From Dehalococcoidia bacterium (GTDB lineage: Bacteria > Chloroflexota > Dehalococcoidia > Lucifugimonadales > UBA3495), in contig DAOUIY010000067.1 of NCBI GenBank assembly GCA_034423215.1, forward strand, positions 52,265-116,264: a stretch of 64,000 bases of DNA. The letters are read 5' to 3'. The translations under genes and the position numbers were made by a program. Each line of letters opens with the position of its first letter. Within the stretch, counting starts at the first letter, position 1. Under the pieces are notes generated by a model. That model ran no database searches, had not been told where the DNA came from, and worked only from the letters and a program-made list of their open reading frames with translations. Shown piece after piece: positions 4,676 through 47,102 of this stretch.

Positions 4676-5083
4676 TCAGGCAACCCATAGAGGCACACCT
4701 TCGGAAGCGGCGGCGTGGGCAAGGGCTCGGTCCAGGGTCGCTAATTCTGCGCCCTGCCGTTTGGCCAGTTCCAAGTATAATGCATCGTAGAACGACAACC
4801 CGTGCTTCCTCGCCAGGTCAAAGGCTGACGGATAGTTGGGATCTCCGTCGGTTTGAATGGGTAAGCCATTCAAGGCATCCAGGCGCTCGCCAATCTCCTC
4901 CGGAGAAATCCGCCCTCGCCGCCCCGCCGACAGCAAGGCATTGCGAATCTCCAGGAGCCAGAGTTGCGGTACAACTGCCCCATCTTCTTTGAGACGTTCC
5001 AGCGCCGCCTCGACTCGTGATTGGTCCTCGTCGTTGAAAATCCACGCCAGGGCCATCGAAGCATCAACAACCAATCCACTCAC
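4676..5083 (-). CDS. vapC: PIN-domain toxin (VapC family)
   Basis: VVDAS, LLEIRNAL, LSFYDALYLELA, LATLD acidic PIN motifs; 4-nt overlap with upstream antitoxin. Confidence 0.88.
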   Translation of the reverse strand: MSGLVVDASMALAWIFNDEDQSRVEAALERLKEDGAVVPQLWLLEIRNALLSAGRRGRISPEEIGERLDALNGLPIQTDGDPNYPSAFDLARKHGLSFYDALYLELAKRQGAELATLDRALAHAAASEGVPLWVA

Positions 5084-6322: not shown

Positions 6323-7381
6323 CTAATTGTTCTTGGACTGGGCGAATATGATGCGGCCGGCGGCGGTCTGCAAGACCCGCGTTACGGTTACGTCGTGGAA
6401 GGCGTTGATGTAGCGCTTTCCGCCCTCGACCACCACCATGGTACCGTCATCCAGGTAGGCCACGCCCTGGCCCAGTTCCTTCCCTTCCTGGACGATGTTG
6501 ACCCGCATTTCCTCGCCCGGCAGGACGATGGACTTGAGGGCGTTGGCCAGTTCGTTGACGTTGAGGACCTGGACTCCCTGGAACTCGGCCACCCGGTTAA
6601 GGTTGTAGTCGGTGGTCAGGATGGGGCACTTCATGGAACGGGCCATCTGCACCAGCATGGAGTCAACCTCATCGCCGTTGCTGATGCCAACATCCATGAT
6701 GTCCAGGGTTATGCTGTCGTCGCGGCGGAGGCGTCCCAGCACTTCCAGTCCCCGGCGTCCCCGGTTGCGGCGCAGCGGGTCGCTGGAGTCGGCGATGTGG
6801 CGGAGTTCGTCGAGGATGAACCGGGGGACCACCAGGGTTCCCTCCAGGAAGCCGGTGCCGGTGAGGTCCGCTATGCGGCCGTCAATTATGACGCTGGTAT
6901 CAACGAGAATATTGCCATTGCGTCCCTCTTTCACCAGCCCGTTGGTGGGAGCGGCGCTCTCCAGGGAGGGGAATACGGCCTGCACGTCCTTGCCCCGCAT
7001 CCCGCCCAGCAGCAGGCCAACCATGCCCAGGGTCAGGCTGACCATTATCGGTATGCCCCAGCCCATCCAGCCGTTGATGTTATAGAAAGGAATGGATATC
7101 AGGGCCGCAAAAACCAGCCCAATCAGCGCGCCAAATGCGGCGGACAAAAGCGTTGAACCCGGAACGGCGTTGACGTAGCTGACGAGGTTTCGCCAGGGTC
7201 GAAGAAAAATGTAAGGAGTTACCAACGCGCCTACCGGAATCCCGACGAGAGCCAGAACTATGCCCCAGGGGATAATCTGCCTTCCGTCCGAAGGCAGGTC
7301 CGGTACATAGGGCCCCAGGCGCCAACCCAGGACGCCGAGCCCTCCGGCCCCAATGATTCGTAGAGTCCATACATCAAACAC
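6323..7381 (-). CDS. Membrane PIN/TRAM-domain protein (YacL-like)
   Basis: N-terminal TMs, LVDTSVIIDGRI, ELRHIADSSD..RRNRGRRGL, GVAYLDDGTMVVVE, QTAAGRIIFA; conserved position upstream of ispD. Confidence 0.92.
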   Translation of the reverse strand: MFDVWTLRIIGAGGLGVLGWRLGPYVPDLPSDGRQIIPWGIVLALVGIPVGALVTPYIFLRPWRNLVSYVNAVPGSTLLSAAFGALIGLVFAALISIPFYNINGWMGWGIPIMVSLTLGMVGLLLGGMRGKDVQAVFPSLESAAPTNGLVKEGRNGNILVDTSVIIDGRIADLTGTGFLEGTLVVPRFILDELRHIADSSDPLRRNRGRRGLEVLGRLRRDDSITLDIMDVGISNGDEVDSMLVQMARSMKCPILTTDYNLNRVAEFQGVQVLNVNELANALKSIVLPGEEMRVNIVQEGKELGQGVAYLDDGTMVVVEGGKRYINAFHDVTVTRVLQTAAGRIIFAQSKNN

Positions 7382-8303: not shown

Positions 8304-8753
8304 TCAGTGGTGCGCCCCGGAGAAAATCTCCGCGGTTACGCTGGTGCTGGGGGTCGCCACGGCGACCGAACCATAGAGGGGTCAACGCCGCTTCCACTGG
8401 TCCACCAGGTACTGTCCCTGGTCGTCATCCAGCCCCCAGATCTGGAAGTGGACTTTTATGTCGTCATAAACGCTGACCGTGCCTTCGTCGGCAATAGAAG
8501 CCCGGTCGGGGTCCCGGTAGGCTTCGACACTAACGTCCATCCAGTTGACAGGAATTTCCTCGCCGCTGGCTATGCGCTCCACCATGTTAACGGCGCAAGC
8601 GGTAATGCCGGACAGGAAAAGTTCGCCGGCGCCAACCTCCTCGCCGCCGGAGCCGTCGGCCACCCAGTGGTGATTGCGAGTGTTGCAGATGGCACGCCCC
8701 GGGGTGCCGGTGCTGTAGCTGTGTACCCGATAAGCCAGGGTTAGTTCCGCCAT
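8304..8753 (-). CDS. OsmC/Ohr-family peroxidase, predicted selenoprotein (Sec at in-frame TGA 8382-8384, residue 124 of 149)
   Basis: First Cys motif LSGITACAVNM. Reading through TGA gives WKRR-U-PLYGSVAVATPSTSVTAEIF, restoring the second C-P motif and the final strand of the OsmC fold. Stem-loop right after the TGA. Confidence 0.8.
8352..8367 (-). promoter_or_regulatory. Putative bacterial SECIS hairpin of the OsmC gene
   Basis: mRNA GGUCGC-CGUG-GCGACC at +15..+30 after UGA; perfect 6 bp stem, GU in loop. Confidence 0.7.
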
Positions 8754-13261: not shown

Positions 13262-13530
13262 AGCTTGCCGGCCAGTCGGGCCGGCTTGACCTGGCGCCGG
13301 CCCGCCCCGCCCATTGGTGTGCTTCCAGGGTTAGCAGCGCTTCCGGGGCTGGCGCTAAGAGAAGAGACGGGCGCTGCCCTTACGTTAGGGGCCAGGACAT
13401 CACACCATAGAACCGGTGGGCAAAGTGCGCCGCGCCAACCACTTGACGCGGTACGCAATAATCTGTACACAAGTTCCCGTAAAACCACTGCCCCAAATCT
13501 GCAATCAGCCGGAAATTAATTGGGCTTTTG

Positions 13531-16500
13531 ATGAACTGGATCGGCTCCCTATTCTGGCTTCTGCCCAGGCGCCTGCGATGGTCGTGGGGCCTGCTGCTGG
13601 TGACCGGCTTCGGAGTGCTGGCGGCGGTGACCATCATGTCCGTTGGCGCCGTTTACACCCGTGCCCTGGCCGAAGCCGGGCTGCAGCACAGCCTGGCCTC
13701 CACCAACCCGGCCATACTCAACACCCACATCATCGCCCAGAACCGTCCCCTTGGCCCGGCGGACTATAGCTCGCTGCGGGACACCATGGATGAAATAGCC
13801 AGGCAGCGGCTGGGCTTCATGCTGCGGGACACCCAGCGATACGGACGGGCCCAACCCGACCTGCTCCTGGTCCAGGAACCCTTCCAGGCTTCCCAGGTGC
13901 TGGGCGCCCCGGCGGCGCGGCCCTTTTTCCTCACCGACTTTGAAGAGCACGTCCGGGTGGTCGAAGGCCGGTGGCCCACTCCCACGCCCGCCGAGGACGA
14001 GGGCAGGCTTTCCATTGAGGTAGCCGTGGGGCCGGACACTGCCAGCGTCATGTTCTGGGAAATTGGCTCGGAAGCGGTCATTCTCCCCTACCGTTCAGAC
14101 CTGGACGAGCAGATACACATGACGGTAGTCGGCATCATGGAACCGGTGGACACCACCGAAGAGTATTGGATGGGTTTCCGCGACTACTTCGGGCCGCAGG
14201 AAGTGGGGGAAGTGGTGCTGATGCCCATGTACCTGCCGGAGGAGCTTTTCTTTAACGGCCTGGGCGCCCGCTACCCGACCCTGGTGGGAGACTTCGGCTG
14301 GTACTTGTACCTGGATACCGACGTGCTGAACGCTGACCTGGTAGCCCCGACCCGCCAGGCCTTCAACCAACTGGAAACCGACATAAACAAGCAGGTGCCC
14401 CGTTCCCTCATCCTGACCAGGCTGGAAAACAGCCGCGATACCGGGCTCTTGGCCCAGTACCAGCGGTCCCTCACCCGCGCACGCGCTCCCATCTACCTCT
14501 ATATCTCCCTGGCCTTGGTGGTCATTCTCTACTTTTTGACCGTGGTGACGGGGCTGCTGGTAGCGACTCGCAGCGAGGAGGCGGGGTTGCTCCGGAGCCG
14601 GGGAGCCAGCATGCTCCAGGTCGGCGCCGTCATAACCCTGGCCGAGGCCCTTATCGTTGTCGTCTCAACCGTTGTGGGGCCTTTCCTGGCTCTGCTCCTG
14701 TTCCGGCTGCTGCTGTTTGACACCATAGACCCCAAGGGCGGCACCGAGGTACTGGAGATAGGGCTACGGGCCGACATGTTCATTTTCGGCGCCGTGGGCG
14801 GGCTGATGAGCCTGGCGGTGCTTCTGGCCGCCAACTTTAACCTGACCCGCCTCGGGTTGCTGGACTTTCTGAGGGAAAGGGCCAGACCGCCGGCCGTGCC
14901 TTTCCTGCAGCGTTATTATGTTGACCTGCTGGTGGTTGCCGCCCTGGGGCTGGTATGGTGGCAGGTGGAGCAGCGGGGGGGCTTTCTTGAACGAACTCTA
15001 ACCACCGGACGGGCCCAACTGGACCCGAGCCTCCTGCTGGCGCCGTCGCTGGCCCTGTTGACGGCGGCATTCCTGGTACTGCGGCTCCTTCCCCTGGTGG
15101 TAAGAGTCCTGGCGTGGCTGGCCCGCTGGGCGGCGCCGGCGTGGGCCGCCTTTGCCCTGGCCCGGGTGGCCCGGGACCCGCTTCCCTATGGTTCGCTGAT
15201 AGTTATTGTGATGCTGTCCGCGGCGCTGGGCGTTTTTGGCGCTTCCTTCCAGTCCACGCTGGAGCGCAGCCAGCGGGAGCAGGCCCTTTACCGCACCGGC
15301 GGCGACATGGTGGTAAGCGTGATAGCTCCCACGGGCGATACCCAGGCCAACATTGCCGCCCTGCCTGCGGTGCACTCCTTTACGCCGGTAGAGCGGGAGT
15401 CGGTGACTTTGCTGGACACCAGGCCCGGCTCTTCGGCCACCCTTCTCGCCATTGACCCGGTAACCCTGGTGGACGTTGCCTGGTATCGTGAGGACTTTTC
15501 GCCCACGGGCAAGACCCTGTCGGGCCTGTTGACGCCCCTGAGGCGGGGCCAGTCGCGGCTGCCCGACCTCAGCGGCAATCTGCCTACCGGTATTCCCATT
15601 CCTGAAGAGGCCGAGAGCATCGGCCTGTGGGTGAACACCGAGAGCATTGCCGACAGCGCAGTCCAGCAGAGCCTGAGCCTGTGGGTGCGGCTGGTAGATG
15701 CCGATGGCAGCCACTTCAACCTGGACATGGGGGACATCGAACTCTCCCCGGGAGGCTTGCGGAACCCCGTGCCAGGCGGCGCAACCCAACCGGCCCAGGC
15801 CGGGTCGGCCAACCCGGGCCAGGAGGACGGGGGCGAACCGGACACGGAAGGACAAGGCGCGGCAGAGTCAGACCCGGCGTGGCGCTATTTCGAGGCCCCC
15901 ATTCCGGTGGAAAAGTACTGGCTGGACCTCCCTCACAGCGTTGTAGCGGTCTTTTTTGTGGGTCGGTCCCTTTACCGTATGCCGCCAGGCTCCGTTGACG
16001 TGGACGATGTCACCGTCAAGCTGAAGTCACCCGGCTCCGCCGCCTCAGCGGAACCAGACTTGCAGGTAATCGAGGACTTCGAGGATATAGGCCGGTGGGT
16101 CGCCCTTCCTCACGACGGCGATACGTCGGACCGGGCGGGCGTCTCCCGCCGGGCGGGGCGGGGCGACGGGCAGGGCATGGAGTTCACCTGGCAGGACCCA
16201 CTGCTGCAGGCGCCCCGGGGCTTCTTCATTCCCCCCGGAGACTTTCCCCTGGCAGCCGTGGGCAGCCCTTCCCTGGCCGGACCGGGCGCCTTGAGGGTCA
16301 ACCTGGGCCGGCAATTGGTGCCGCTGCTGGTGCATGACACGGTCCTTCACTTTCCCACCATCTCCGAGAGAAACAAGCCCTTCCTGATAGTGTCGCTGGA
16401 GTCCCTCCAGGACTATACCAGCCGAATTCCCAGGGGCATCCCCATTCCCCCTCGGCAATACTGGCTGGCCCTGGAATCGGGCGCCGACCGGGAGCAGGCA

Positions 16501-17019
16501 GTCCGCTCCATTCGCGAGGCCACTTCCGTTTCGGCCAATATAATAGACCGGGCCGGCCTGGTGGACCGTGCGGAGAGAGACCCCCTGGCCGGCGGAGGAT
16601 GGAACGGGCTGACCCTCCTGGGCCTGGGTACTCTCACCATCGTGGTCACTCTTACCCTGGCTACCCACGCCCTGGTGGCCGTCCGGTCCGCCCGGGTTGA
16701 CCTTACGGTAGTCCGCGCCCTGGGGTTGTCCCAACGCCAGGTGCTGGGGATGCTGGTGCTGGAGCGGGTCCTGGTGGCGGTCCTGGGACTGGTTGCAGGG
16801 ACGGTGATAGGCTATTTCCTGGGCCGCTGGACCCTGGGGTTCCTGGAAATCTCCGCCAGCGGCATCCCGATAATTCCTCCCATGATACAGACGGCCCAGC
16901 CCTGGCTCATTGCCCTGATTATCGTGAACCTGGCAATCGCGACAGTCCTGGGCACGGTGGTGGCCGTGCTGGCGGCGGTAAGGCTAAAGCCCTCTGATAT
17001 ACTGCGAAACAGCGGGTAG
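13531..17019 (+). CDS. Large MacB/FtsX-type ABC permease (two FtsX modules)
   Basis: About 1160 aa; RSEEAGLLRSRGAS and RVDLTVVRALGLS FtsX signatures; large extracytoplasmic domains. Confidence 0.88.
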   Translation: MNWIGSLFWLLPRRLRWSWGLLLVTGFGVLAAVTIMSVGAVYTRALAEAGLQHSLASTNPAILNTHIIAQNRPLGPADYSSLRDTMDEIARQRLGFMLRDTQRYGRAQPDLLLVQEPFQASQVLGAPAARPFFLTDFEEHVRVVEGRWPTPTPAEDEGRLSIEVAVGPDTASVMFWEIGSEAVILPYRSDLDEQIHMTVVGIMEPVDTTEEYWMGFRDYFGPQEVGEVVLMPMYLPEELFFNGLGARYPTLVGDFGWYLYLDTDVLNADLVAPTRQAFNQLETDINKQVPRSLILTRLENSRDTGLLAQYQRSLTRARAPIYLYISLALVVILYFLTVVTGLLVATRSEEAGLLRSRGASMLQVGAVITLAEALIVVVSTVVGPFLALLLFRLLLFDTIDPKGGTEVLEIGLRADMFIFGAVGGLMSLAVLLAANFNLTRLGLLDFLRERARPPAVPFLQRYYVDLLVVAALGLVWWQVEQRGGFLERTLTTGRAQLDPSLLLAPSLALLTAAFLVLRLLPLVVRVLAWLARWAAPAWAAFALARVARDPLPYGSLIVIVMLSAALGVFGASFQSTLERSQREQALYRTGGDMVVSVIAPTGDTQANIAALPAVHSFTPVERESVTLLDTRPGSSATLLAIDPVTLVDVAWYREDFSPTGKTLSGLLTPLRRGQSRLPDLSGNLPTGIPIPEEAESIGLWVNTESIADSAVQQSLSLWVRLVDADGSHFNLDMGDIELSPGGLRNPVPGGATQPAQAGSANPGQEDGGEPDTEGQGAAESDPAWRYFEAPIPVEKYWLDLPHSVVAVFFVGRSLYRMPPGSVDVDDVTVKLKSPGSAASAEPDLQVIEDFEDIGRWVALPHDGDTSDRAGVSRRAGRGDGQGMEFTWQDPLLQAPRGFFIPPGDFPLAAVGSPSLAGPGALRVNLGRQLVPLLVHDTVLHFPTISERNKPFLIVSLESLQDYTSRIPRGIPIPPRQYWLALESGADREQAVRSIREATSVSANIIDRAGLVDRAERDPLAGGGWNGLTLLGLGTLTIVVTLTLATHALVAVRSARVDLTVVRALGLSQRQVLGMLVLERVLVAVLGLVAGTVIGYFLGRWTLGFLEISASGIPIIPPMIQTAQPWLIALIIVNLAIATVLGTVVAVLAAVRLKPSDILRNSG

Positions 17020-17043: not shown

Positions 17044-20000
17044 ATGTCATTTTTGCAGTTGGCATACGTCATGGCCCGCAGGAGAATTGCCACTGCATGG
17101 CGGCTGGAGCTTGTCCTTTTTCTCGGCATTCTCCTGTCGGTAGCCCTGCTGTCCAGCAGCGTGGTCTTTTCCGACCTGCTGGCCGAAGCGGCGCTGCGCC
17201 GTGCCCTGCGGGAGGCCGCCGCAGAAGACGTTAACTTCTGGGTCCGCATCTTCCAGAACCTGGAAGAGCCGGCCACCGCCGAGCGCCGCGCCTCGGTTTA
17301 CCAGACCAGCCAGGAATTCGTAGAAAGCCGCGTCACCAGTTCCTTTGAGCCCTACGTGGAGAACCACGCCCGCCTACTGGAAACCTCCACCTTTTTCTTC
17401 ACCGGAGACCCGCGCTTCAACGTGGAGCGGGACGCCAGGCCCAGGGGCCGCATCCAGTACATGACCGGCCTGTTTGAACCGGACCGCAGCCGGCTGTTGC
17501 AGGGAAGCTGGCCCGCGGACTCCCCGGCCATTTCCGACGCGCCTGTGCCGGTTGCCATAGAGCGCGTCGGGGCAGACCTGTTGGACTTCCGGCTGGGCCA
17601 ACGGTTCCAGGTGCATCCCGCCTCGGGCGACCGGGAAGAGGAACTGCTTGACGTAGAAATAGTCGGCATATTCGAGCGAAACGACCCCTCGAACGATTTC
17701 TGGTACGGGCGGGAGCATAACTTCAGCAACCACAACGGGGAATGGCCCACGGTGCCCCTGTTCGTCACCGAAGGGACCATTCTCCAGCGAGTGGCCACCG
17801 AGTACCCAGGCATCTACTCCAACGCCACCTGGCTTTACGACCTGGACCGCCAGGGGTTCGGTTTTGAAGAAGTGGAGGAAGTCCAGTACCGCATTCGCCT
17901 GATGCGGCATGAAGTGGCTACGGCCCTGGACAACTCCTCTGTTTCCATCAAGCTGGACCGGCTGCTGGAGGATTACTCCGAACAGTTGGTGCTGTCCCGA
18001 ATCCCGCTCTTTTTGATGGTGTTCCTGGTAGTGGGCATTCTCGCCTATTACCTGGCCCTGGTTTCGGCCCTCACCATACGGTCGCGCAGCGCCGAGATTG
18101 CCCTGCTGAAGAGCCGGGGAGCCACCACCCCGCAGGTGGGCCTGATGGTCTTCGTGGAGGGACTGCTGCTGGCCGCCCCGGCGGTGGCCATAGGCACCCT
18201 GCTGGCCGCCCCGGTAGCCGGCGTACTGGGCAGCCTTTTCTTCGACGTGGAAAGGGATGGCATCTTAATCGCGCTGTCCGACCGGGCATTTCTGCTGGGG
18301 GCGGCCGGGGCGCTGCTCTCCGTGGTTGTGCTCACCCTCTCCACGCTGGTGGCCGCCCGCCAGGGCATAGTAGAATTCCGCCAGACCGGGGCCAGGCCGG
18401 CCCGCGCTCCCCTGCTGCACCGCTACTACCTGGATTTCCTGCTCCTGGCCCTTATCGGCATCATCTGGTGGCAGATTCAGAGCCGGGACAGCTTTCTGTT
18501 GCGCCCCGTCGGGCGGGGCGCGCTGGAGATTGACTTCACGCTGTTGCTGGGGCCCGTCCTCGGGCTGCTGGCCCTGGGACTGGTGGTGCTTCGCTTCTTT
18601 CCCCTGGCAGTGGCGCTGCTGGCCCGCCTGGCAGAACCGGTGGGGCCCGTCTGGCTGGTGCAGGGTTTGCGCCGGGTGGGGCGGGACCCCATTGCGCCGG
18701 GCAGCCTGGTGGTCTTGTTGATGCTGGCCACTGCCCTGGGCGTCATCGGCAGCGCCTTCGGCTCCACCCTAGAGCGGAGCCAGGAGGACCGGGCCTGGTA
18801 CCAGGTAGGGGCGGATTTGCGGGTGGAACACAACGGGAACAGGAAACCGGTCACTTTCCAGGGGCTTGGCGAACAGCTTGAGGGCAGCGTGGCCGGCCTC
18901 CGGGTGGCAGAGGCTACCCGGCTGAACGGCAACCTGCTTACCCAGGGATTCAGCAGCGAACGGTTTGCCCTGCTGGCCGTTGACAGCAGGGAGTTCGGCC
19001 AGGTCGCCTGGTTCAGGCCGGATTTTGCCGATGGCAGGTCTCTTCCCTTCCTGATGCGCTCCATTGCCCCGCCGGCCCGCCTCTCGGAAGAGCGACAACT
19101 GGGCGAGGTGCAAATCCACGAGTCCCTGCTGGCCGGCGGCAGCCCGGGAATAGAACTGCCGCCCGATGCCACCGGCCTGGCGCTCTGGGTAAATCCCGGT
19201 CAACCGGGCGCGCGGCTGGCCATGGGAGCCCGGATTCGGGACGCCACGGGCTATACCTTTGACACTCTTATCGGCGAGCCGGGCGACTCTGGCTGGCAAC
19301 GCATATCCGGTGAACTCGCTTCCCGTCCCCGCCGGGGCGGCGGCGAACCCCATCCGGTTACGCCGCCCTTCACCCTGATAAACCTCCAGGTTACCAGCCG
19401 CCTGGGGCTGAACGACCCGGGGGTCATGTTCCTGGACGAACTCTCGGCCATTACCCCCGATGGTGAAGAGGTTGTGTCCGATTTCCAGGACCCGGAGGAC
19501 TGGCAGGTGGTCGAGGACTTTGCCCGGCCGGGTCTGTACGCCCTGGAAAGCAGCAGGGCGGTCACTCGGCAGGGACGGAGCGTGTCGCTGGCCTACAGTT
19601 GGGCGCCCGGCGGAACGGGCCTGCGGGGCTTGCGGCCGGGAGGGCCCACGGCGCCGGCGCCGGCCATCGTTTCGCCGGACGTCCTGGAACTGGCCGACAT
19701 TGAGGTGGGCGAGGTTATCAACATCAGCGCCACCAGCTTTGCCCTGCCCGTCCGGGTGGTGGCGGTGGCCGACTATTTCCCCACCCTTGACCCCAGGGAA
19801 CAGCCCTTCATGGTACTGGACCTGGAAACCTTCAACCTCTTCGCCGACCGCCAGGCCCGCCGGCCCGGCTCGGGCCCCAACGAGGTTTGGGCCGCCGCGC
19901 CGGATGCCGGAGCGGCGCTCACCGCAATAACGGCGGCGCTGGACCAGCTGGAATTGAACCGGGAAGAGAGCCTACTGGCCGAAGAGGAGGTGCGCCGGAG

Positions 20001-20454
20001 AGTGGAGCAGCCCCTGGCCAACGCCAGTTGGGGCGGTTTGCTGGCCCTGATGTTCCTTGCCCTGGTCCTGGCCAGCGCCTCCGGGGTGGTGCTCTATTCC
20101 TACGTGGATACGGGGGAGCGGCGCACCGAGTTCGCCCTGCTGCGCACCCTTGGCTCCTCGGCCGGCCAGTTGAACGGCATGGTATGGTTTAACCTGCTGT
20201 TGATGGTGGTCTGCGGCGTAGTCCTGGGCACGTGGGCCGGTCAGCAGATAGGTGCTACCCTGCTGCCCGTTTTGGAAGTCTCGGAAGGCGGGGTCAGGGT
20301 GACTCCGCCCATGACCCTGCAAGCCAACTGGATGACCCTGGCGGTGGCCTACCTGGCCCTGGCCGCGGTGGCGGTGGCCAACGTGGTGTGGCTGGCCTGG
20401 TTCACCTCCCGCCTCAATATTCAGCAGGTGCTGCGGGCCGGCGAGGGAGGGTAA
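17044..20454 (+). CDS. Large MacB/FtsX-type ABC permease, paralogue of upstream gene
   Basis: 1136 aa; RSAEIALLKSRGAT and RRTEFALLRTLG signatures. Confidence 0.88.
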   Translation: MSFLQLAYVMARRRIATAWRLELVLFLGILLSVALLSSSVVFSDLLAEAALRRALREAAAEDVNFWVRIFQNLEEPATAERRASVYQTSQEFVESRVTSSFEPYVENHARLLETSTFFFTGDPRFNVERDARPRGRIQYMTGLFEPDRSRLLQGSWPADSPAISDAPVPVAIERVGADLLDFRLGQRFQVHPASGDREEELLDVEIVGIFERNDPSNDFWYGREHNFSNHNGEWPTVPLFVTEGTILQRVATEYPGIYSNATWLYDLDRQGFGFEEVEEVQYRIRLMRHEVATALDNSSVSIKLDRLLEDYSEQLVLSRIPLFLMVFLVVGILAYYLALVSALTIRSRSAEIALLKSRGATTPQVGLMVFVEGLLLAAPAVAIGTLLAAPVAGVLGSLFFDVERDGILIALSDRAFLLGAAGALLSVVVLTLSTLVAARQGIVEFRQTGARPARAPLLHRYYLDFLLLALIGIIWWQIQSRDSFLLRPVGRGALEIDFTLLLGPVLGLLALGLVVLRFFPLAVALLARLAEPVGPVWLVQGLRRVGRDPIAPGSLVVLLMLATALGVIGSAFGSTLERSQEDRAWYQVGADLRVEHNGNRKPVTFQGLGEQLEGSVAGLRVAEATRLNGNLLTQGFSSERFALLAVDSREFGQVAWFRPDFADGRSLPFLMRSIAPPARLSEERQLGEVQIHESLLAGGSPGIELPPDATGLALWVNPGQPGARLAMGARIRDATGYTFDTLIGEPGDSGWQRISGELASRPRRGGGEPHPVTPPFTLINLQVTSRLGLNDPGVMFLDELSAITPDGEEVVSDFQDPEDWQVVEDFARPGLYALESSRAVTRQGRSVSLAYSWAPGGTGLRGLRPGGPTAPAPAIVSPDVLELADIEVGEVINISATSFALPVRVVAVADYFPTLDPREQPFMVLDLETFNLFADRQARRPGSGPNEVWAAAPDAGAALTAITAALDQLELNREESLLAEEEVRRRVEQPLANASWGGLLALMFLALVLASASGVVLYSYVDTGERRTEFALLRTLGSSAGQLNGMVWFNLLLMVVCGVVLGTWAGQQIGATLLPVLEVSEGGVRVTPPMTLQANWMTLAVAYLALAAVAVANVVWLAWFTSRLNIQQVLRAGEGG

Positions 20455-21680: not shown

Positions 21681-21906
21681 GAAGAACGGCAATAAGAAAC
21701 TATCTCAAGAGTCCCTCCCCCCTTGCTGGCCTCGTCCTATCAAAGGGGGTGACGGATGGCGCAATGCTACTACCAGTACCAAATACGAAGTCCGATAACC
21801 TTTTAGGGATAGTCTCTAAGGCCGGGCAATGCCGGGCCCGGGAGGGCGGCGATGCTCAACTTCCGCCATACCCGGACCAAAGCAAACCAACAGGAACAGT
21901 GCAGCC

Positions 21907-22686
21907 ATGACAACACAGCCGCCCACGCCAGGGAGCCAGTCGCCATTGGGCCAGTCGCCATCGGGCCAAACCGGGGTTGCCGCAGCGGCTCCGATTCCCG
22001 CTTCCAGCATTATTTCCGCCAGGGGCTTGAGTAAGGTGTTCGGCGCAGGAGACCAGGCAGTAACCGCCGTAAATTCCGTGGACATGGACATAAGGCCCGG
22101 GGAGTTCCTGGCAATAACCGGCCGGTCGGGGTCGGGCAAGACAACGCTGCTCAACCTGCTGGCCGGCCTGGACCAGCCCACCGACGGGCGGGTGGTGTTC
22201 GAGGGCCGCAACCTGAATGAGTTTACGGAAAGGCAGTTGGTGGAGTTGCGCCGGACCCGCATTGCCTTCGTGTTTCAGTCCTTTGGGCTGATACCCCTCC
22301 TGTCGGCCTACGAAAACGTGGAACTCCCCCTGCACATCGGCGGGGCCAACTGGCGGGAACGCCGTCAACGGGCGGCGGAATCGCTGGAGTTGGTAGGACT
22401 GGGCTCCCGGACCGGCCACCGTCCCTATGAGCTGTCCGGCGGCGAACAGCAGCGAGTGGCTATAGCGCGAGCCCTGGTTACCGGGCCGTCAGTGCTGTTT
22501 GCCGATGAACCTACCGGAGAACTGGACAGCGTCACCGGCATATCCATTTCCACCATCCTGCGGGACATCGCCCGGGACCGGGGCGTCACGGTAATCACAG
22601 CCACCCACGACCTGACCCTGGCCGGCATGTGTACCCGGAGGCTGGCCATGGCCGACGGCATGTTCACCGCCGCCGCCAACGATTAA
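21907..22686 (+). CDS. ABC ATP-binding protein (LolD/MacB type)
   Basis: GRSGSGKTT, LSGGEQQRV, FADEPTGELD. Confidence 0.92.
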   Translation: MTTQPPTPGSQSPLGQSPSGQTGVAAAAPIPASSIISARGLSKVFGAGDQAVTAVNSVDMDIRPGEFLAITGRSGSGKTTLLNLLAGLDQPTDGRVVFEGRNLNEFTERQLVELRRTRIAFVFQSFGLIPLLSAYENVELPLHIGGANWRERRQRAAESLELVGLGSRTGHRPYELSGGEQQRVAIARALVTGPSVLFADEPTGELDSVTGISISTILRDIARDRGVTVITATHDLTLAGMCTRRLAMADGMFTAAAND

Positions 22687-26464: not shown

Positions 26465-27013
26465 TTAATCAACAATTTCCGCCTTGGCGCCATCGGGCAG
26501 TTCCACCTCAAAGGCCGTCAGAATCTGCCCGACCAGGAGGTAGTGCCCGATGAGTCCGGTTATGTCCACCGTGTTCTGGGTGCCGAACCGCTCCATCACC
26601 GCGTTGAAGGTGCCGTCGCTGATTTTCCGGTTCTGGAGAAGTTCCTGAACGTAGCGGACAACCAGCTCCTCGTCGCCGGAGAGACCCTGGGGAGCCGTGC
26701 CCCGGGCGATGGCACCGATGGTCTCCTCGGTTACGCCGTGGCCCCTGGCCAAGCGGGCGTGAGCGGCAAACTCGTACTGGTTCCGAATCTCCCGGGCGGT
26801 GGCGATGATGATGACTTCCTTCAGGGCCTCGGGAATGTCAAAGTCAAAGCGCACGTAGGTGCCGGTGTGGGCGACCCTGGCCGCCAGCTTCGGGCTGTGG
26901 AGCAGCACGCCGTAGGGGCCCCTCACACTGCCCCGGCTGCCAACAATCTCGTCAAAAAAATGCTGGTCCTCTGCGGACAGTTCCTCTCTGGTTACATTGG
27001 GTAGTCGTGCCAT
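26465..27013 (-). CDS. Carboxymuconolactone decarboxylase (AhpD-like) family protein
   Basis: GPYGVLLHSP, KEVIIIATAR, YEFAAHARLA, TGLIGHY; no CxxC. Confidence 0.85.
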   Translation of the reverse strand: MARLPNVTREELSAEDQHFFDEIVGSRGSVRGPYGVLLHSPKLAARVAHTGTYVRFDFDIPEALKEVIIIATAREIRNQYEFAAHARLARGHGVTEETIGAIARGTAPQGLSGDEELVVRYVQELLQNRKISDGTFNAVMERFGTQNTVDITGLIGHYLLVGQILTAFEVELPDGAKAEIVD

Positions 27014-32395: not shown

Positions 32396-34615
32396 TCACT
32401 CCCCCGCCCGATATATGGACGTCTCGGGGTAGAAGGAATACCAGCCAAACCAGTAGGCATTGTGGCTGGGTATGCGCTCCGGGCGCAGGGTGGGGTCTTC
32501 CACGTTAACCAGGGCGGTCTCTTCCACCCTCCACAACCGGCCTTCGCTGTCGGTGAGAACCGTCGTGTCGGGGGCCTCGCCCTCCTCCAGGATAAACGTC
32601 CGCTCGCCCCGGTGGTAAGCCCTGCTGCCCAGGTGGCCTATCGTGACCATCACCAGCGGCTGCCCCCCCAGTTCGTCGTTGACCACCCGCTGCTTCCTGA
32701 GCGTTTCCAGCGGGTACGCCCTGGCCTCGCCGTTAATGCGCAGTCCTATCACCTGGCCCTTGGTGGTAAGGGCATCGCTTGACCGCCAGACGGGGAACAT
32801 GGTCTGGGGGCTCTCCCGGTAATTGAAGTAGATGGACCGGCTGTCCCACTCCGACTGGTAAAATTGGCCCGGATAAAGTCCGGTTTCCTGGTCCAGCACC
32901 GTGGTATCGGGATGGGCCGTTATCCATTCCTTCCAGGTTGTGGTCACCACCGGAAGCAACTCCAGCCGGGCGCCGGTTCCCACCAACGGACCCGCGGCAG
33001 GCACGCCCGTGAACTGGTTCCAGAGGGTGTGGGTCTTACGGTCGTACATCAGCTTGTTGCTGCGGTATAGCATCCCGGACGTGCCAAATTCTACCCTTTC
33101 CCCGTCGATGTTGGTGGAATACACGATTCCCGCTCCGCAGAGGGTTCAATATGCCAGCGCGAAGGGCACGCCGCCCACCACGTCGTTGGCCATTTCGTGG
33201 GCGTTTACAATGCGGTGGGGGTAGGCACGGTGCTCGCCGTTGAAGGATACGCCGAAGACCCGGTCCTCCGGGTCCAGGTAGTCGGCATCGGCCCCGGCAA
33301 TGACCGGGGCGTCGGTCAAGTCGGGAATCTGGTCCTTTCCCACACCGCCCCAGACTATTTCCTCAACCCGGATGTTGGCGGGCATGCCCTCGTAGAGGAA
33401 GGCGCCAGTTTCCACGTTGACCAACTCGGAAAAGAGGGTGCCCTTCCAACCGGTAAAACCTGGGGGAGGCCATACATCCGGGCGCTGGCCTATCCATACA
33501 ACCCAACGGAACCACTCATCCGGCTCCCGTTCCGCCTCAACCGCCGCTATGGAAGGATTCCGGGCGGCAATCCGGTCCAGCGAGTCAAAAATGGCTAACT
33601 CTACGGACCGGTCCCTGAGCCACCAGGGAAACCGCATCAACTCTACCAGTACGGGAATGAAGGCCGGGTCGCCCGTCTCCCCCATCTTCTCAATGTCCCA
33701 GGGGTCTCCCAGCAGCGCAGAGTCCAGGGCATCGTACATCAGCCTGTTTGCCGAGCTTCTTTCCGTACCGGGGTTGGGTCCGGGGACATGCCACCGGGAC
33801 AGGTTACGAGTTGCATCGGCGCAGGATACCAGCCTCAAGTCCCGGCGCAGGTGGGAAGGCCCGCCGGCCGGCTCACCCTCGCCGGGGGCTACAGTCAGGC
33901 ACACTTCTCGGTCCGCAGTGCGCAGTGAGCCGTCGGCGCCGTGAACAAACTGCTGGTTAGGGCTGTCGCTGCACGGACGGGTATATACCAACTCCCCCTC
34001 GGCCTCCATGCAGAGGTCGTGGGCGGCCATGTAAAGGCGCCCTGCAATGGGCGCGTTAACGGTGAAAAGTTCGTCATTGGCGCCCGGCTTGCAGGTGTGG
34101 GCCTGCAGGGGCCGGTCCACCCCCAGGTTGTTGCCAAACCCGGGAATGTCCACGCAGTAAAACTCGGGTTCGTCCAGCGGGTCAATAAGCTGGATGAGGG
34201 TTTCAACCACCTCGGGGGACTCTGTGGCAGGCTGGGGGTCAGGCGCACCGTTCTGTGCAGACTCAGGAGCAGCGTCTTGCGAAGTTGCGGACGCTGTTGA
34301 GGGTCCCGACTGACCGGCCTCGGAGGTTGAGTCCGTCGAGGGGCCAGGCGATGTGGCAGTGGAGCCGGAGTCCTTTGCAGCCACCCCGGCCTCGGCAAGG
34401 GCAATGGCCGCCGACCCGGAAGAGGACTCGTCCTGCCCACCTGCCGGGGCAACCGACACCGATGAACCGCTTTCGATTCCCGCGCTGCTGGTCGGCGTGG
34501 TGAGTTCCGTGCCATCTCTGCTGTCCGAATTTTCCGAGCCACAGGCAATCGGAAACGCCAGCAGCGTCAGCAAGGCCGCAACGGCCAAAAGAGTCCTGAA
34601 ATGGAGGCCTAGCAA
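32396..34615 (-). CDS. DUF3179-family lipoprotein with ricin-type lectin domain, predicted selenoprotein (Sec at in-frame TGA 33146-33148, residue 490 of 739)
   Basis: ORFs 33146..34615 and 32396..33124 are in the same frame, 7 codons apart. Join reads HEMANDVVGGVPFALAY-U-TLCGAG, the family YCxxC motif, then EFGTSGMLYRSNKLMYD and AYWFGW. Lipobox PIAC. Confidence 0.85.
33116..33130 (-). promoter_or_regulatory. Putative bacterial SECIS hairpin of the DUF3179 gene
   Basis: mRNA GGAAU-CGUGU-AUUCC at +16..+30 after UGA; possible outer pairing ACCCU(+1)/AGGGU(+49). Confidence 0.6.
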
Positions 34616-35790
34616 GGCCCCATCTCGGTCAACTTGCCTTCGCGCCAGGCCACCGCTCCGTTGCGGACCGTCAAAAAGGTGTCCAGCCGCACCTTGCCCT
34701 CTACCTTGTTTCGAGCCATGTCGTGCCAGACGAACCTCCCTTCCCGGAGGTCATAAACGGCGGCGTCGCCGGACATGCCCGGGGCGAGGGAACCCAGTTC
34801 ATTCTCCATACCCAGCACCTGGGCCGGGCGGGACGTGCTGGCCGCCACCGCGTCCTCAAGGGACATTCCCAGCGCATGGAACTTGCTTATCAGGTCATTC
34901 ATCAAGTAAACCCTACGACCGGGCGGCGGCAGGTGGATGTCCGTGCTGATGGTATCCGGCGGCAGGCCCTGCTGCATGGCCGCCCTGGCCACCTCAACGT
35001 CGCAGTGGACGCCGGCGTGTCCCAGGTCCATTATGACGCCCCGCTCCGAAGCAGCCCGCACCTCCGGGCGCAGCCGGTCCTGCCTGTCGAGGATGCCCTC
35101 ATGGTTGCCGTTGAAGGCATGGGTGGCAATGTCCCCGGGCCCCAGAAATTCCAGCACCTGGGGCAGGGGAATAGGCGTGCCGCTCACATGGACCATGAGT
35201 TTGCCGCCCGACTGGTCGGCGGCGGCGCGGGCCCGGCGCATGGCCTCCGGAGCGTCCCAGTAGGTCACCGCATTCAGCTCCATGCGGACTTTTACCCCGA
35301 ACAGGAACCCGGGGTTGTTCTTTACGGCGTCCGACGTCTGGTCCACGTCAATTATTCTCAGGTCCTGCAGGCCGCCGCCCAGCACTCGGTTGGCGGCCAG
35401 GCCCACCGAGCCAATGTGAAGGAAAGCCAGGAGACGGGTGCGGTGGGCCGGGAAGACATAGTCCCGCATGGCGCCCATGTTCAGGCAACCGGCGCTGCCC
35501 GCATCCACGCCGGTGGTAACGCCGGCGGAAAGGCAGTTCTGGTCGGCGTGGACGGCGCTGCCGGTGCCCCCATGATAAAAGTGGCCGTGCAGGTCAATAA
35601 GCCCCGGCGTTACCACCTTGCCGGCAATGTCCACCACGTTCAGGGCAGAGTCCGGCGATATGCGCTCGGCAACGGCGGCCACCCTTCCGCCCTGAAAGGC
35701 GACATCCCTGCGGTCATGTATGCCCTGGGCCGGGTCCAGCAGCGTTCCACCTTTTAGCAGCAGGTCATAACTGGCGGGCGCGGTGGTCAT
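34609..35790 (-). CDS. Amidohydrolase/deacetylase-family metallohydrolase (dihydroorotase-like)
   Basis: PGLIDLHGH, GVTTGVDAG, GVKVR, MVH, THAFNG, ISTDIH. Confidence 0.85.
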   Translation of the reverse strand: MTTAPASYDLLLKGGTLLDPAQGIHDRRDVAFQGGRVAAVAERISPDSALNVVDIAGKVVTPGLIDLHGHFYHGGTGSAVHADQNCLSAGVTTGVDAGSAGCLNMGAMRDYVFPAHRTRLLAFLHIGSVGLAANRVLGGGLQDLRIIDVDQTSDAVKNNPGFLFGVKVRMELNAVTYWDAPEAMRRARAAADQSGGKLMVHVSGTPIPLPQVLEFLGPGDIATHAFNGNHEGILDRQDRLRPEVRAASERGVIMDLGHAGVHCDVEVARAAMQQGLPPDTISTDIHLPPPGRRVYLMNDLISKFHALGMSLEDAVAASTSRPAQVLGMENELGSLAPGMSGDAAVYDLREGRFVWHDMARNKVEGKVRLDTFLTVRNGAVAWREGKLTEMGPC

Positions 35791-46473: not shown

Positions 46474-46725
46474 ATGGATACCCAACAGGAACTTCTAGCG
46501 CGTATAACCGCCAGGCAGGACGTGTTTGGGGGCAAGCCGATCATCCGCGATATGCGTATTTCGGTGAGGCTTATCCTCAGTTTACTGAGCCAAGGAGTAT
46601 CCCAGGAGGATATCCTGGACGATTATCCGGAACTGGAACCGGATGACATTCGCGCCTGCATTGCCTATGCCTGCGCCGTAGTATCCGGTGACACCTTGGC
46701 GTCCATATCGGTTGACGGCGTTTGA
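46474..46725 (+). CDS. DUF433 family antitoxin
   Basis: FGGKPIIRDMRISV, ILDDYPELEPDDIRACIAYA. Confidence 0.92.
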   Translation: MDTQQELLARITARQDVFGGKPIIRDMRISVRLILSLLSQGVSQEDILDDYPELEPDDIRACIAYACAVVSGDTLASISVDGV

Positions 46726-47102
46726 GGTTCATGACAGACCGGTGCGCCGGGCGTCGTCTGGCCGAGTGGTTAAGGACCAACGGGCACGACGTTCTTGAAG
46801 CGCAAAGCCTCGGCCCGGACCCGGGAGACCAGGCGTTGCTGGAATATGCGGCGGCAGAAAGACGCATATTCATCACAATAGACAAGGACTACGGTGAGCT
46901 TATATTTATGCGCCTTGCTGCCCACAGCGGGCTGATACGGCTGCCCGACCTGGAGATGTCCCGGAGAATGACATTGGTTGAAAGATTGATTAGGAGTTAC
47001 AGGCAGGAATTGGAAGAGGGCGCCGTAATCACCATAAACGCCGGACGGATTCGAACTTCATACTCCCCCAACTTTCCGCGGGGATGTAACGGTGATTACT
47101 AG
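46722..47102 (+). CDS. DUF5615 family PIN-like toxin
   Basis: MRFMTD, GHDV, DPGDQALLEYA, FITIDKDYGEL. Confidence 0.9.
   Translation: MRFMTDRCAGRRLAEWLRTNGHDVLEAQSLGPDPGDQALLEYAAAERRIFITIDKDYGELIFMRLAAHSGLIRLPDLEMSRRMTLVERLIRSYRQELEEGAVITINAGRIRTSYSPNFPRGCNGDY

Follow-up and report, generated by a model that had tools for sequence, protein, structure and literature searches.

A DUF3179 gene of a Dehalococcoidia bacterium that is called as two open reading frames is very probably one selenocysteine-decoding gene

The canonical bacterial selenocysteine (Sec) insertion sequence (SECIS), as in E. coli fdhF and the bSECISearch consensus, is a stem-loop that lies 3' of the UGA inside the coding sequence, with its loop usually about 16-37 nt away. 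Two reviews (PMC9312934, which mentions the canonical bacterial SECIS, and PMC13188914) list "DUF3179 domain-containing protein, pfam11376, UxxC/T" (DUF, domain of unknown function; U, Sec) as a prokaryotic selenoprotein family. Both attribute the family to Zhang & Gladyshev 2007 (PMC1976440), who used the Olavius symbiont metagenome and described new families with Sec/Cys pairs and post-UGA stem-loops in these symbionts. Here we analyse a DUF3179 gene on the minus strand (32396-34615) of a 64,000-nt stretch of DNA from a Dehalococcoidia bacterium (contig DAOUIY010000067.1, positions 52,265 to 116,264; hereafter the window). This gene has been called as two open reading frames (ORFs), and our analysis followed up an original prediction, made from the DNA letters alone, that it is one 739-aa UxxC selenoprotein.

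Direct translation of the minus-strand frame from 34615 to 32396 gave 740 codons with one internal and one terminal stop. As we read it, the gene is complete, with 739 codons, a terminal TGA (32396-32398) and one internal TGA (33146-33148) that is almost certainly decoded as selenocysteine, at residue 490 and position one of the UxxC motif Y-U-T-L-C-G. The ORF list divides the same frame into an ORF of 489 aa (33146-34615, minus strand; TTG start, TGA end at 33148-33146) and an ORF of 242 aa (32396-33124, minus strand; GTG start), which share their frame and lie 750 nt apart. The TGA and the GTG at 33124 have exactly seven sense codons (T-L-C-G-A-G-I) between them, and the junction peptide reads ...GGVPFALAY-TGA-TLCGAGIVYS. 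The original prediction had described two minus-strand ORFs in one frame with only a TGA plus 7 codons between them, joined as VPFALAY-U-TLCGAGIVYS; its coordinates and reading proved exact, and translation confirmed the join.

Provided that the TTG at 34615 is the start, the lengths sum to 739 aa (489 + 1 + 249). This candidate start (34613-34615), which we adopt as probable rather than certain, overlaps the upstream amidohydrolase gene (34609-35790) by 7 nt (34609-34615), and the three starts chosen by gene callers in near-identical contigs give N-terminal parts of 480, 489 or 500 aa. All public assemblies seen at the locus call two ORFs, of 480-500 aa and 242-252 aa. TGA also serves as an ordinary stop in the window, where it ends 17 other predicted genes.

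A profile alignment across the junction, which had been proposed as a check on the original prediction, gave a clear result. With the TGA replaced by Cys, the protein had a single match to Pfam DUF3179 (PF11376; E 3.5e-75, 253.6 bits against a cut-off of 27), a whole-domain match above the gathering score that covered residues 427-732 and profile positions 1-292 of 292. The match crosses junction residue 490, and the two ORFs therefore hold one domain cut by the TGA. This domain (32420-33337, minus strand) contains an internal duplication, which is described below.

A homologue search of a collection of 5.8 billion proteins returned more than 7,000 homologues. About 115 of the best 120 were full-length and carried the invariant pattern HEMxND-x11-Y-C-T-L-C-G with Cys at the TGA position, so that the in-frame UGA aligns with a homologue Cys, as is expected of a selenoprotein gene. 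Three clusters were fragments: P0010, an N-terminal fragment (96% identical), ends ...FALAY, and the C-terminal fragments P0015 and P0022 (79% and 69% identical) start MYS.... In a 47-sequence alignment, the invariant residues near the site were H187, E188, N191, D192, C204 (the Sec position), T205, L206, C207, G208 and H282. The statement in the original prediction that the family carries a YCxxC motif and has known Sec forms is borne out by the YCTLCG found in these roughly 115 homologues and by the UxxC/T entry in both reviews (PMC9312934, PMC13188914).

One objection to a selenoprotein is that sequencing or assembly introduced the TGA by mistake, or that it arose by a recent inactivating nonsense mutation and the gene is a pseudogene. 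Every caller splits the gene in two, and one homologue (L002, discussed below) has TGG at the codon, both of which would fit such an explanation. The same TGA, however, is present in the independently assembled strain-level assemblies L003-L007, which show 98.5-100% nucleotide identity to the window with 0-34 substitutions (L007 100%, L005 98.8%, L003/L006 and L004 98.5%) and represent four independent strain variants. It is also kept in L001, an orthologue with 75% nucleotide identity and the same gene neighbourhood. Each of these loci is called as two ORFs. We further scanned one genome per species of the Genome Taxonomy Database (GTDB) with a DNA pattern for H-E-x-x-N-[DE]-(34 nt)-TGA-T-L-C-G, for which we estimate about 0.1 chance matches, and found TGA at this codon in at least 120 loci. 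Nearly all were from Dehalococcoidia, SAR202 or other Chloroflexota metagenome-assembled genomes; the remainder were a few from Methylomirabilota/Rokubacteria, Nitrospinota and Limnocylindria and one from Actinomycetes. Almost all loci free of contig-end cuts had 240-270 open codons after the TGA and 250-500 before it, and three (L080, L091 and L103) looked broken.

The sequence downstream of the TGA behaves as coding sequence as well. In the window, 249 codons follow the TGA without a further stop. For the closest orthologues (L001, L030, L034, L060 and L109) relative to the window, the ratio of nonsynonymous to synonymous substitution rates (dN/dS) was 0.09-0.14 over the upstream 200 codons and 0.10-0.14 over the part that follows the TGA. 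As the two sides have equal ratios, the 3' part is translated and constrained like the 5' part, and a conserved UGA is thus combined with constrained downstream coding. An error or a pseudogene is hardly credible on this evidence, and we regard that explanation as effectively refuted by the conservation across species.

Immediately beyond the TGA lies a SECIS-like hairpin core, GGAAU-CGUGU-AUUCC (33116-33130, minus strand), which is predicted to form a 5-bp stem and a 5-nt loop, starts 15 nt past the TGA and encodes G-I-V-Y-S. Minimum free energy folds of the 45 nt after the TGA (33101-33145, minus strand) include this hairpin, together with a possible lower helix (ACCCU with AGGGU further 3') that occurs in only some relatives and lacks statistical support. 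The identical 15-mer was found in 84 of the 99 GIVY-type Sec forms, where by our multiplication of the window's codon usage (GGA 13%, ATC 39%, GTG 42%, TAT 28%, TCC 37%) about 0.2% would be expected. Codons +6 to +10 (GGA-AUC-GUG-UAU-UCC) were 89-98% fixed, even on the minor codons GGA and UAU; in the same alignment, fixation at other conserved Gly, Thr and Ser positions was 37-76%, and Tyr elsewhere prefers TAC.

The pairing itself also appears to be under selection. The closing pair (columns 18-34) covaries, with C-G in 63 sequences, U-A in 20, G-C in 2 and U-G in 1. In a 60-sequence alignment the named structure paired in register in 83% of cells, compared with 28-58% when the partner was slid by 1-3 columns, and its covariation score was reached by none of 500 shuffles. 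Subfamilies that do not encode GIVYS, such as those with G-V-L-Y-D-A, have a different hairpin in the same place (GGCGUC-CUGUAC-GACGCC). A metagenome-wide pattern scan for Cys-form genes with C-T-L-C-G-x-G-I-V-Y found only six (L128-L133); the hairpin was present in none of them, and they used other codons (e.g. GGC/GGG AUC GUC UAC). The Cys paralogue in L119 likewise had no hairpin. On this comparative evidence, a SECIS-type stem-loop directly 3' of the UGA is predicted for the family, and the element is a conserved, Sec-form-specific putative RNA hairpin at SECIS distance, to which SelB would bind; the single copy in the window is a weak example. As a separate observation, G-I-V-Y follows CxxCGx in 99 of 119 Sec forms (L008-L127) but in only six Cys-form matches from the whole metagenome collection, and the RNA hairpin seems to constrain the amino acids that it encodes.

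In another explanation the gene is genuinely split: translation would stop at the TGA and restart at the GTG at 33124, and two polypeptides would form one DUF3179 domain. The GTG lies only 7 codons past the TGA with a GGAG 8 nt upstream of it in the window, at a Shine-Dalgarno distance, and it is present in 93 of 94 GIVYS-type loci. The GTG is, however, also the Val codon of G-I-V-Y-S within the hairpin loop, and the GGAG lacks conservation, most relatives having GGC-ACC at that place. The earliest start available to other Sec-form subfamilies can be as many as 33 codons downstream, at a loss of invariant residues, and the subfamilies without GIVYS have no conserved restart codon. A restart would moreover discard the invariant second Cys of CxxC, the full-length Cys homologues are single chains, and the interrupting stop is TGA in all three contexts checked apart from the scan pattern (the window, L001 and L003-L007). 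We therefore consider a split gene very improbable.

A third alternative is that the UGA is read through with another amino acid such as Trp or Cys by a near-cognate tRNA and without a Sec pathway. Among about 55 ORFs of the window and in the 10 kb past its right edge, annotation with Pfam revealed no sel genes. ARAGORN found no tRNA in the window, and the loci of relatives held only ordinary tRNAs. According to Slaby et al. 2017 (PMC5649159), most sponge-symbiont bins have SelA together with SelB; in their Table S4, bin22 (MPMM00000000, "Chloroflexi; SAR202 clade") has SelA 2, SelB 1 and SelD 1, and the entries for the other four SAR202 bins are non-zero. The bin22 genome holds L034 (MPMM01000002.1), which is a syntenic TGA orthologue of the window gene. 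SelA, SelB and SelD are thus found in related sponge SAR202 genomes, which argues against readthrough by another amino acid, as do the catalogued status of the family, the replacement by this codon of a Cys of CxxC (a classic Sec/Cys pair) and a hairpin that is conserved, covarying and Sec-form-specific at bacterial SECIS distance. In addition, the motif would probably lose its activity if Trp replaced the invariant Cys. The absence of Sec machinery from the window and the 10 kb past its right end, the Trp encoded by L002 and the weakness of the window hairpin are in favor of such readthrough, which we nonetheless judge to be unlikely.

Separately, a tRNA-Ser(GGA) gene lies about 1-2 kb from the Sec-form DUF3179 gene in L022, L055, L061, L063, L067, L093, L095, L099, L100 and L125, a clade with the peptide ...EPISLVY-U-TLCGTGIVYSGIVNG. 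This tRNA is not a tRNA-Sec, and its position looks like plain synteny.

Several observations weigh against a single Sec-decoding gene. The first is the TGG (Trp) at the Sec codon in L002 (10571-10573 of contig ctg350188_2x_l, protein P0001), a 55%-identical homologue, which may reflect an error in sequencing or a recent loss of Sec to Trp; L002 keeps the GGAATCGTGTATTCC hairpin despite the TGG, and its contig name suggests 2x coverage. Second, our search pattern itself demanded T-L-C-G after the TGA, which makes the conservation of these residues in the 120 loci circular, and we rejected it as evidence of translation. Third, the window hairpin is one of the weaker ones in the family, with a core of -4.3 kcal/mol: most relatives have stems of 6-9 bp, and only 10 of 99 sequences stop at 5 bp; the window is one of these 10, owing to a G.A mismatch at the covarying closing pair. 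Folding of the 91 nt that follow the TGA was no better than that of shuffled sequences (z = +1.5), and 76% of synonymous recodings held a stem of equal length (>=5 bp) somewhere in 48 nt, so that the window's hairpin by itself proves nothing; with this peptide and the codon usage of the window, just these five pairs would arise with a probability of about 4%. RNAalifold gave no consensus structure on the 60-sequence alignment, in which the L001 row was mis-registered and added gap columns, and Rfam at gathering thresholds had no match in the whole window. Fourth, selA, selB, selD and tRNA-Sec were absent from the 64-kb window, the 10 kb past its right-hand end and the other loci examined. Lastly, we found no conserved partner gene, with every neighbouring family confined to 13 or fewer of the 119 loci (120 copies), no relative of the protein by sequence search of the PDB, and nothing at E <= 0.001 in a Foldseek comparison of the PDB with an AlphaFold model of P0002, a Cys homologue. 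Against these points stand the alignment with Cys, the conservation of the TGA, the constrained downstream frame, the hairpin and the known family, all of which sustain one 739-aa UxxC selenoprotein over two ORFs. We place the probability that 34615-32396 (minus strand) is a single Sec-decoding gene at about 0.88.

The predicted protein has the features of an exported one. Its translation begins with a signal peptide that has a lipobox-like end (34541-34615, minus strand; MLGLHFR / TLLAVAALLTLLAF / P-I-A-C25), followed by a low-complexity linker rich in Ser, Thr, Ala, Pro and Gly (residues ~26-140; 34196-34540, minus strand) and a ricin-B-type lectin-like module with six Cys (residues 153-246; 33878-34159, minus strand). 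The ricin-B assignment (PF00652) is borderline, at 29.3 bits against a cut-off of 29 (E 1.1e-06) over about three quarters of the profile, and was recorded as weak in orthologues too. Set against the lipobox consensus [LVI][ASTVI][GAS]C, the Pro at -3 of the window lipobox (F-P-I-A-C) is atypical. By pattern matching, 88 of 110 Sec-form orthologues have a relaxed lipoprotein pattern ([LVI][AS][AG]C) with an n-region and an h-region in the same place; their n-regions are positively charged and their lipoboxes mostly classic (VAAC, LLGC, AVAC). These features support the earlier suggestion of an extracytoplasmic, lipid-anchored protein, and judging from them the protein is probably exported and lipid-anchored.

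In the AlphaFold model of P0002 (predicted local distance difference test score [pLDDT] 86.6, predicted template modelling score 0.80), a helical region is followed by a mostly beta DUF3179 domain, and the equivalent of the linker is predicted to be disordered (pLDDT <50). The DUF3179 repeat unit is V-x-G-[VL]-x-x-N-G-E-x-R-A-Y-P...N-D-x-x-G-G-x-P, and the two halves of the domain align with each other (BLASTP E 2e-08). UxxC is present in the first repeat only, and the second has T-I-G-H-L-G at that position. We found no evident thioredoxin-fold protein among the listed top 50 Foldseek matches, which gives no indication of a thioredoxin-like fold around the CxxC, and no NCBIfam model matched the protein. 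The original prediction had also suggested an oxidoreductase, but the fold predicted for P0002 resembled no oxidoreductase of solved structure. The sole local resemblances of the P0002 model were to the Rieske-type ferredoxin/NirD fold (3gce with probability 0.63 and template modelling score 0.48 over 86 columns; also 2jo6 and 3d89), and in our reading the DUF3179 spacing H-x16-C-x-x-C recalls the second half of the Rieske motif. All of these matches were non-significant (E >0.4), however, and DUF3179 lacks the first Cys-x-His of the Rieske site, so that the resemblance may serve as a lead and makes no claim of membership.

Taken together, these observations suggest the following model. During translation the UGA at 33148-33146 would not be read as a stop. 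The hairpin GGAAUCGUGUAUUCC, 15 nt downstream of the UGA, would act as a bacterial SECIS and recruit SelB carrying Sec-tRNA(Sec), and selenocysteine would be inserted as the first residue of U-T-L-C, where most relatives have C-T-L-C. The exported product of about 739 aa would consist of the signal peptide, the low-complexity linker, the ricin-B-like module, the helical region and the DUF3179 domain, with the Sec/Cys pair in the first of two duplicated beta-rich repeats, beside the invariant His, Glu, Asn and Asp. We infer Sec insertion itself, export, lipidation and the chemistry of UxxC from the features described above. The Sec/Cys pair is most likely the reactive centre of the domain, as a selenenylsulfide redox couple or a Se/S metal ligand pair, and it is because of this pair, from which alone the function is deduced, that we propose a redox or metal-binding centre outside the cell.

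A broader proposal, which we offer as speculation and would not expect to hold in full, is that Sec-form DUF3179 is a lineage-wide, sometimes multi-copy, extracytoplasmic selenoenzyme of SAR202/Dehalococcoidia with a new Se-ligated metal or redox centre made up of the Sec, the Cys and the invariant His/Glu/Asp on a duplicated Rieske-like beta fold. The SECIS would in that case have shaped the protein sequence, G-I-V-Y-S being common in Sec forms and rare in Cys forms.

Other features of these loci were recorded in passing. Some Dehalococcoidia genomes have a second Sec-form DUF3179 gene, either in tandem with the first or at another locus (L023 has TGA at oriented offsets 1860 and 3778, and L039 and L066 are both from OZ253584.1), and the Sec form has therefore expanded by duplication. 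The neighbours of the gene in the window's clade are two amidohydrolases. A scan of the window for in-frame TGA gave no other convincing selenoprotein. An OsmC-like ORF (8382-8753, minus strand; Pfam OsmC E 7e-07) ends in TGA, and we rejected it as a selenoprotein: it scored 20.6 bits against a cut-off of 95 with NCBIfam OsmC_like_Se ("OsmC-related (seleno)protein"), and its 25-codon in-frame extension looks non-coding. CMD and DNA_binding_1 are families with Sec forms elsewhere (PMC9312934, PMC13188914); the CMD-family gene of the window (26465-27013, minus strand; 182 aa) is an uninterrupted ORF, and a DNA_binding_1 gene (methylated-DNA-protein-cysteine methyltransferase type) lies just outside the window (L134, 20874-20933). 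Two very large paralogues of 1163 and 1136 aa (13528-17019 and 17044-20454, plus strand) have FtsX-type permease domains at their C-termini only, with no Pfam match over most of their length, and are followed by an ABC (ATP-binding cassette) ATPase gene (21829-22686, plus strand). Toxin-antitoxin-like modules (4676-5083 and 6323-7381, minus strand; 46474-47102, plus strand) comprise PIN, PIN-TRAM and a small ORF overlapping DUF5615/Mut7-C, and fit the toxin-antitoxin enrichment reported for sponge symbionts (PMC5649159).

DUF3179 is a large and widespread domain, with thousands of homologues and no solved structure or known function. A conserved Sec at its CxxC points to this motif as the reactive centre and provides a well-defined residue to probe. 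The same two-ORF miscall probably affects the Sec-form DUF3179 genes of well over 100 Dehalococcoidia/SAR202 species genomes, and the present case is of value because it corrects a systematic miscall and draws attention to the probable reactive centre of a large DUF domain. The gene also implies selenium use, and surface export of a selenoprotein, by a SAR202-type, apparently sponge-associated bacterium. Our literature search found no paper connecting SAR202 with the DUF3179 selenoprotein family, and the broad distribution of the Sec form within Dehalococcoidia and its near-invariant 15-nt SECIS core may not have been described before, although both fit the pattern already established.

Compared with the canonical bacterial SECIS, the window hairpin is similar in lying just 3' of the UGA within the coding sequence, with its apical loop 20 nt from the UGA and G/U in the loop. 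It differs in being far shorter and weaker (5 bp, -4.3 kcal/mol), and a bulged U or a long lower helix could not be demonstrated in it. The Cys-form DUF3179 proteins of Chloroflexota (P0002 and P0003, 52-55% identity) share with our protein the architecture from the helical region to the C-terminus, the invariant HEMxND, YCTLCG, SNKLMYDR and WFxW, and a lipoprotein signal (VAAAC, VAAC). Their genes, in contrast, have TGC or TGT in place of TGA and lack the GGAAU/AUUCC hairpin even where the peptide is G-I-V-Y. The closest described systems are the catalogued DUF3179 selenoproteins. These come from a deltaproteobacterial worm symbiont, whereas the window gene is from an apparently sponge-associated SAR202/Dehalococcoidia bacterium and has a long N-terminal extension that the reviews do not describe. 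Both have the same domain (253.6 bits for the window protein), Sec as the first residue of C-x-x-C, a majority of Cys homologues and a stem-loop after the UGA. The window gene belongs to this already catalogued Sec-form family, with no new category or mechanism.

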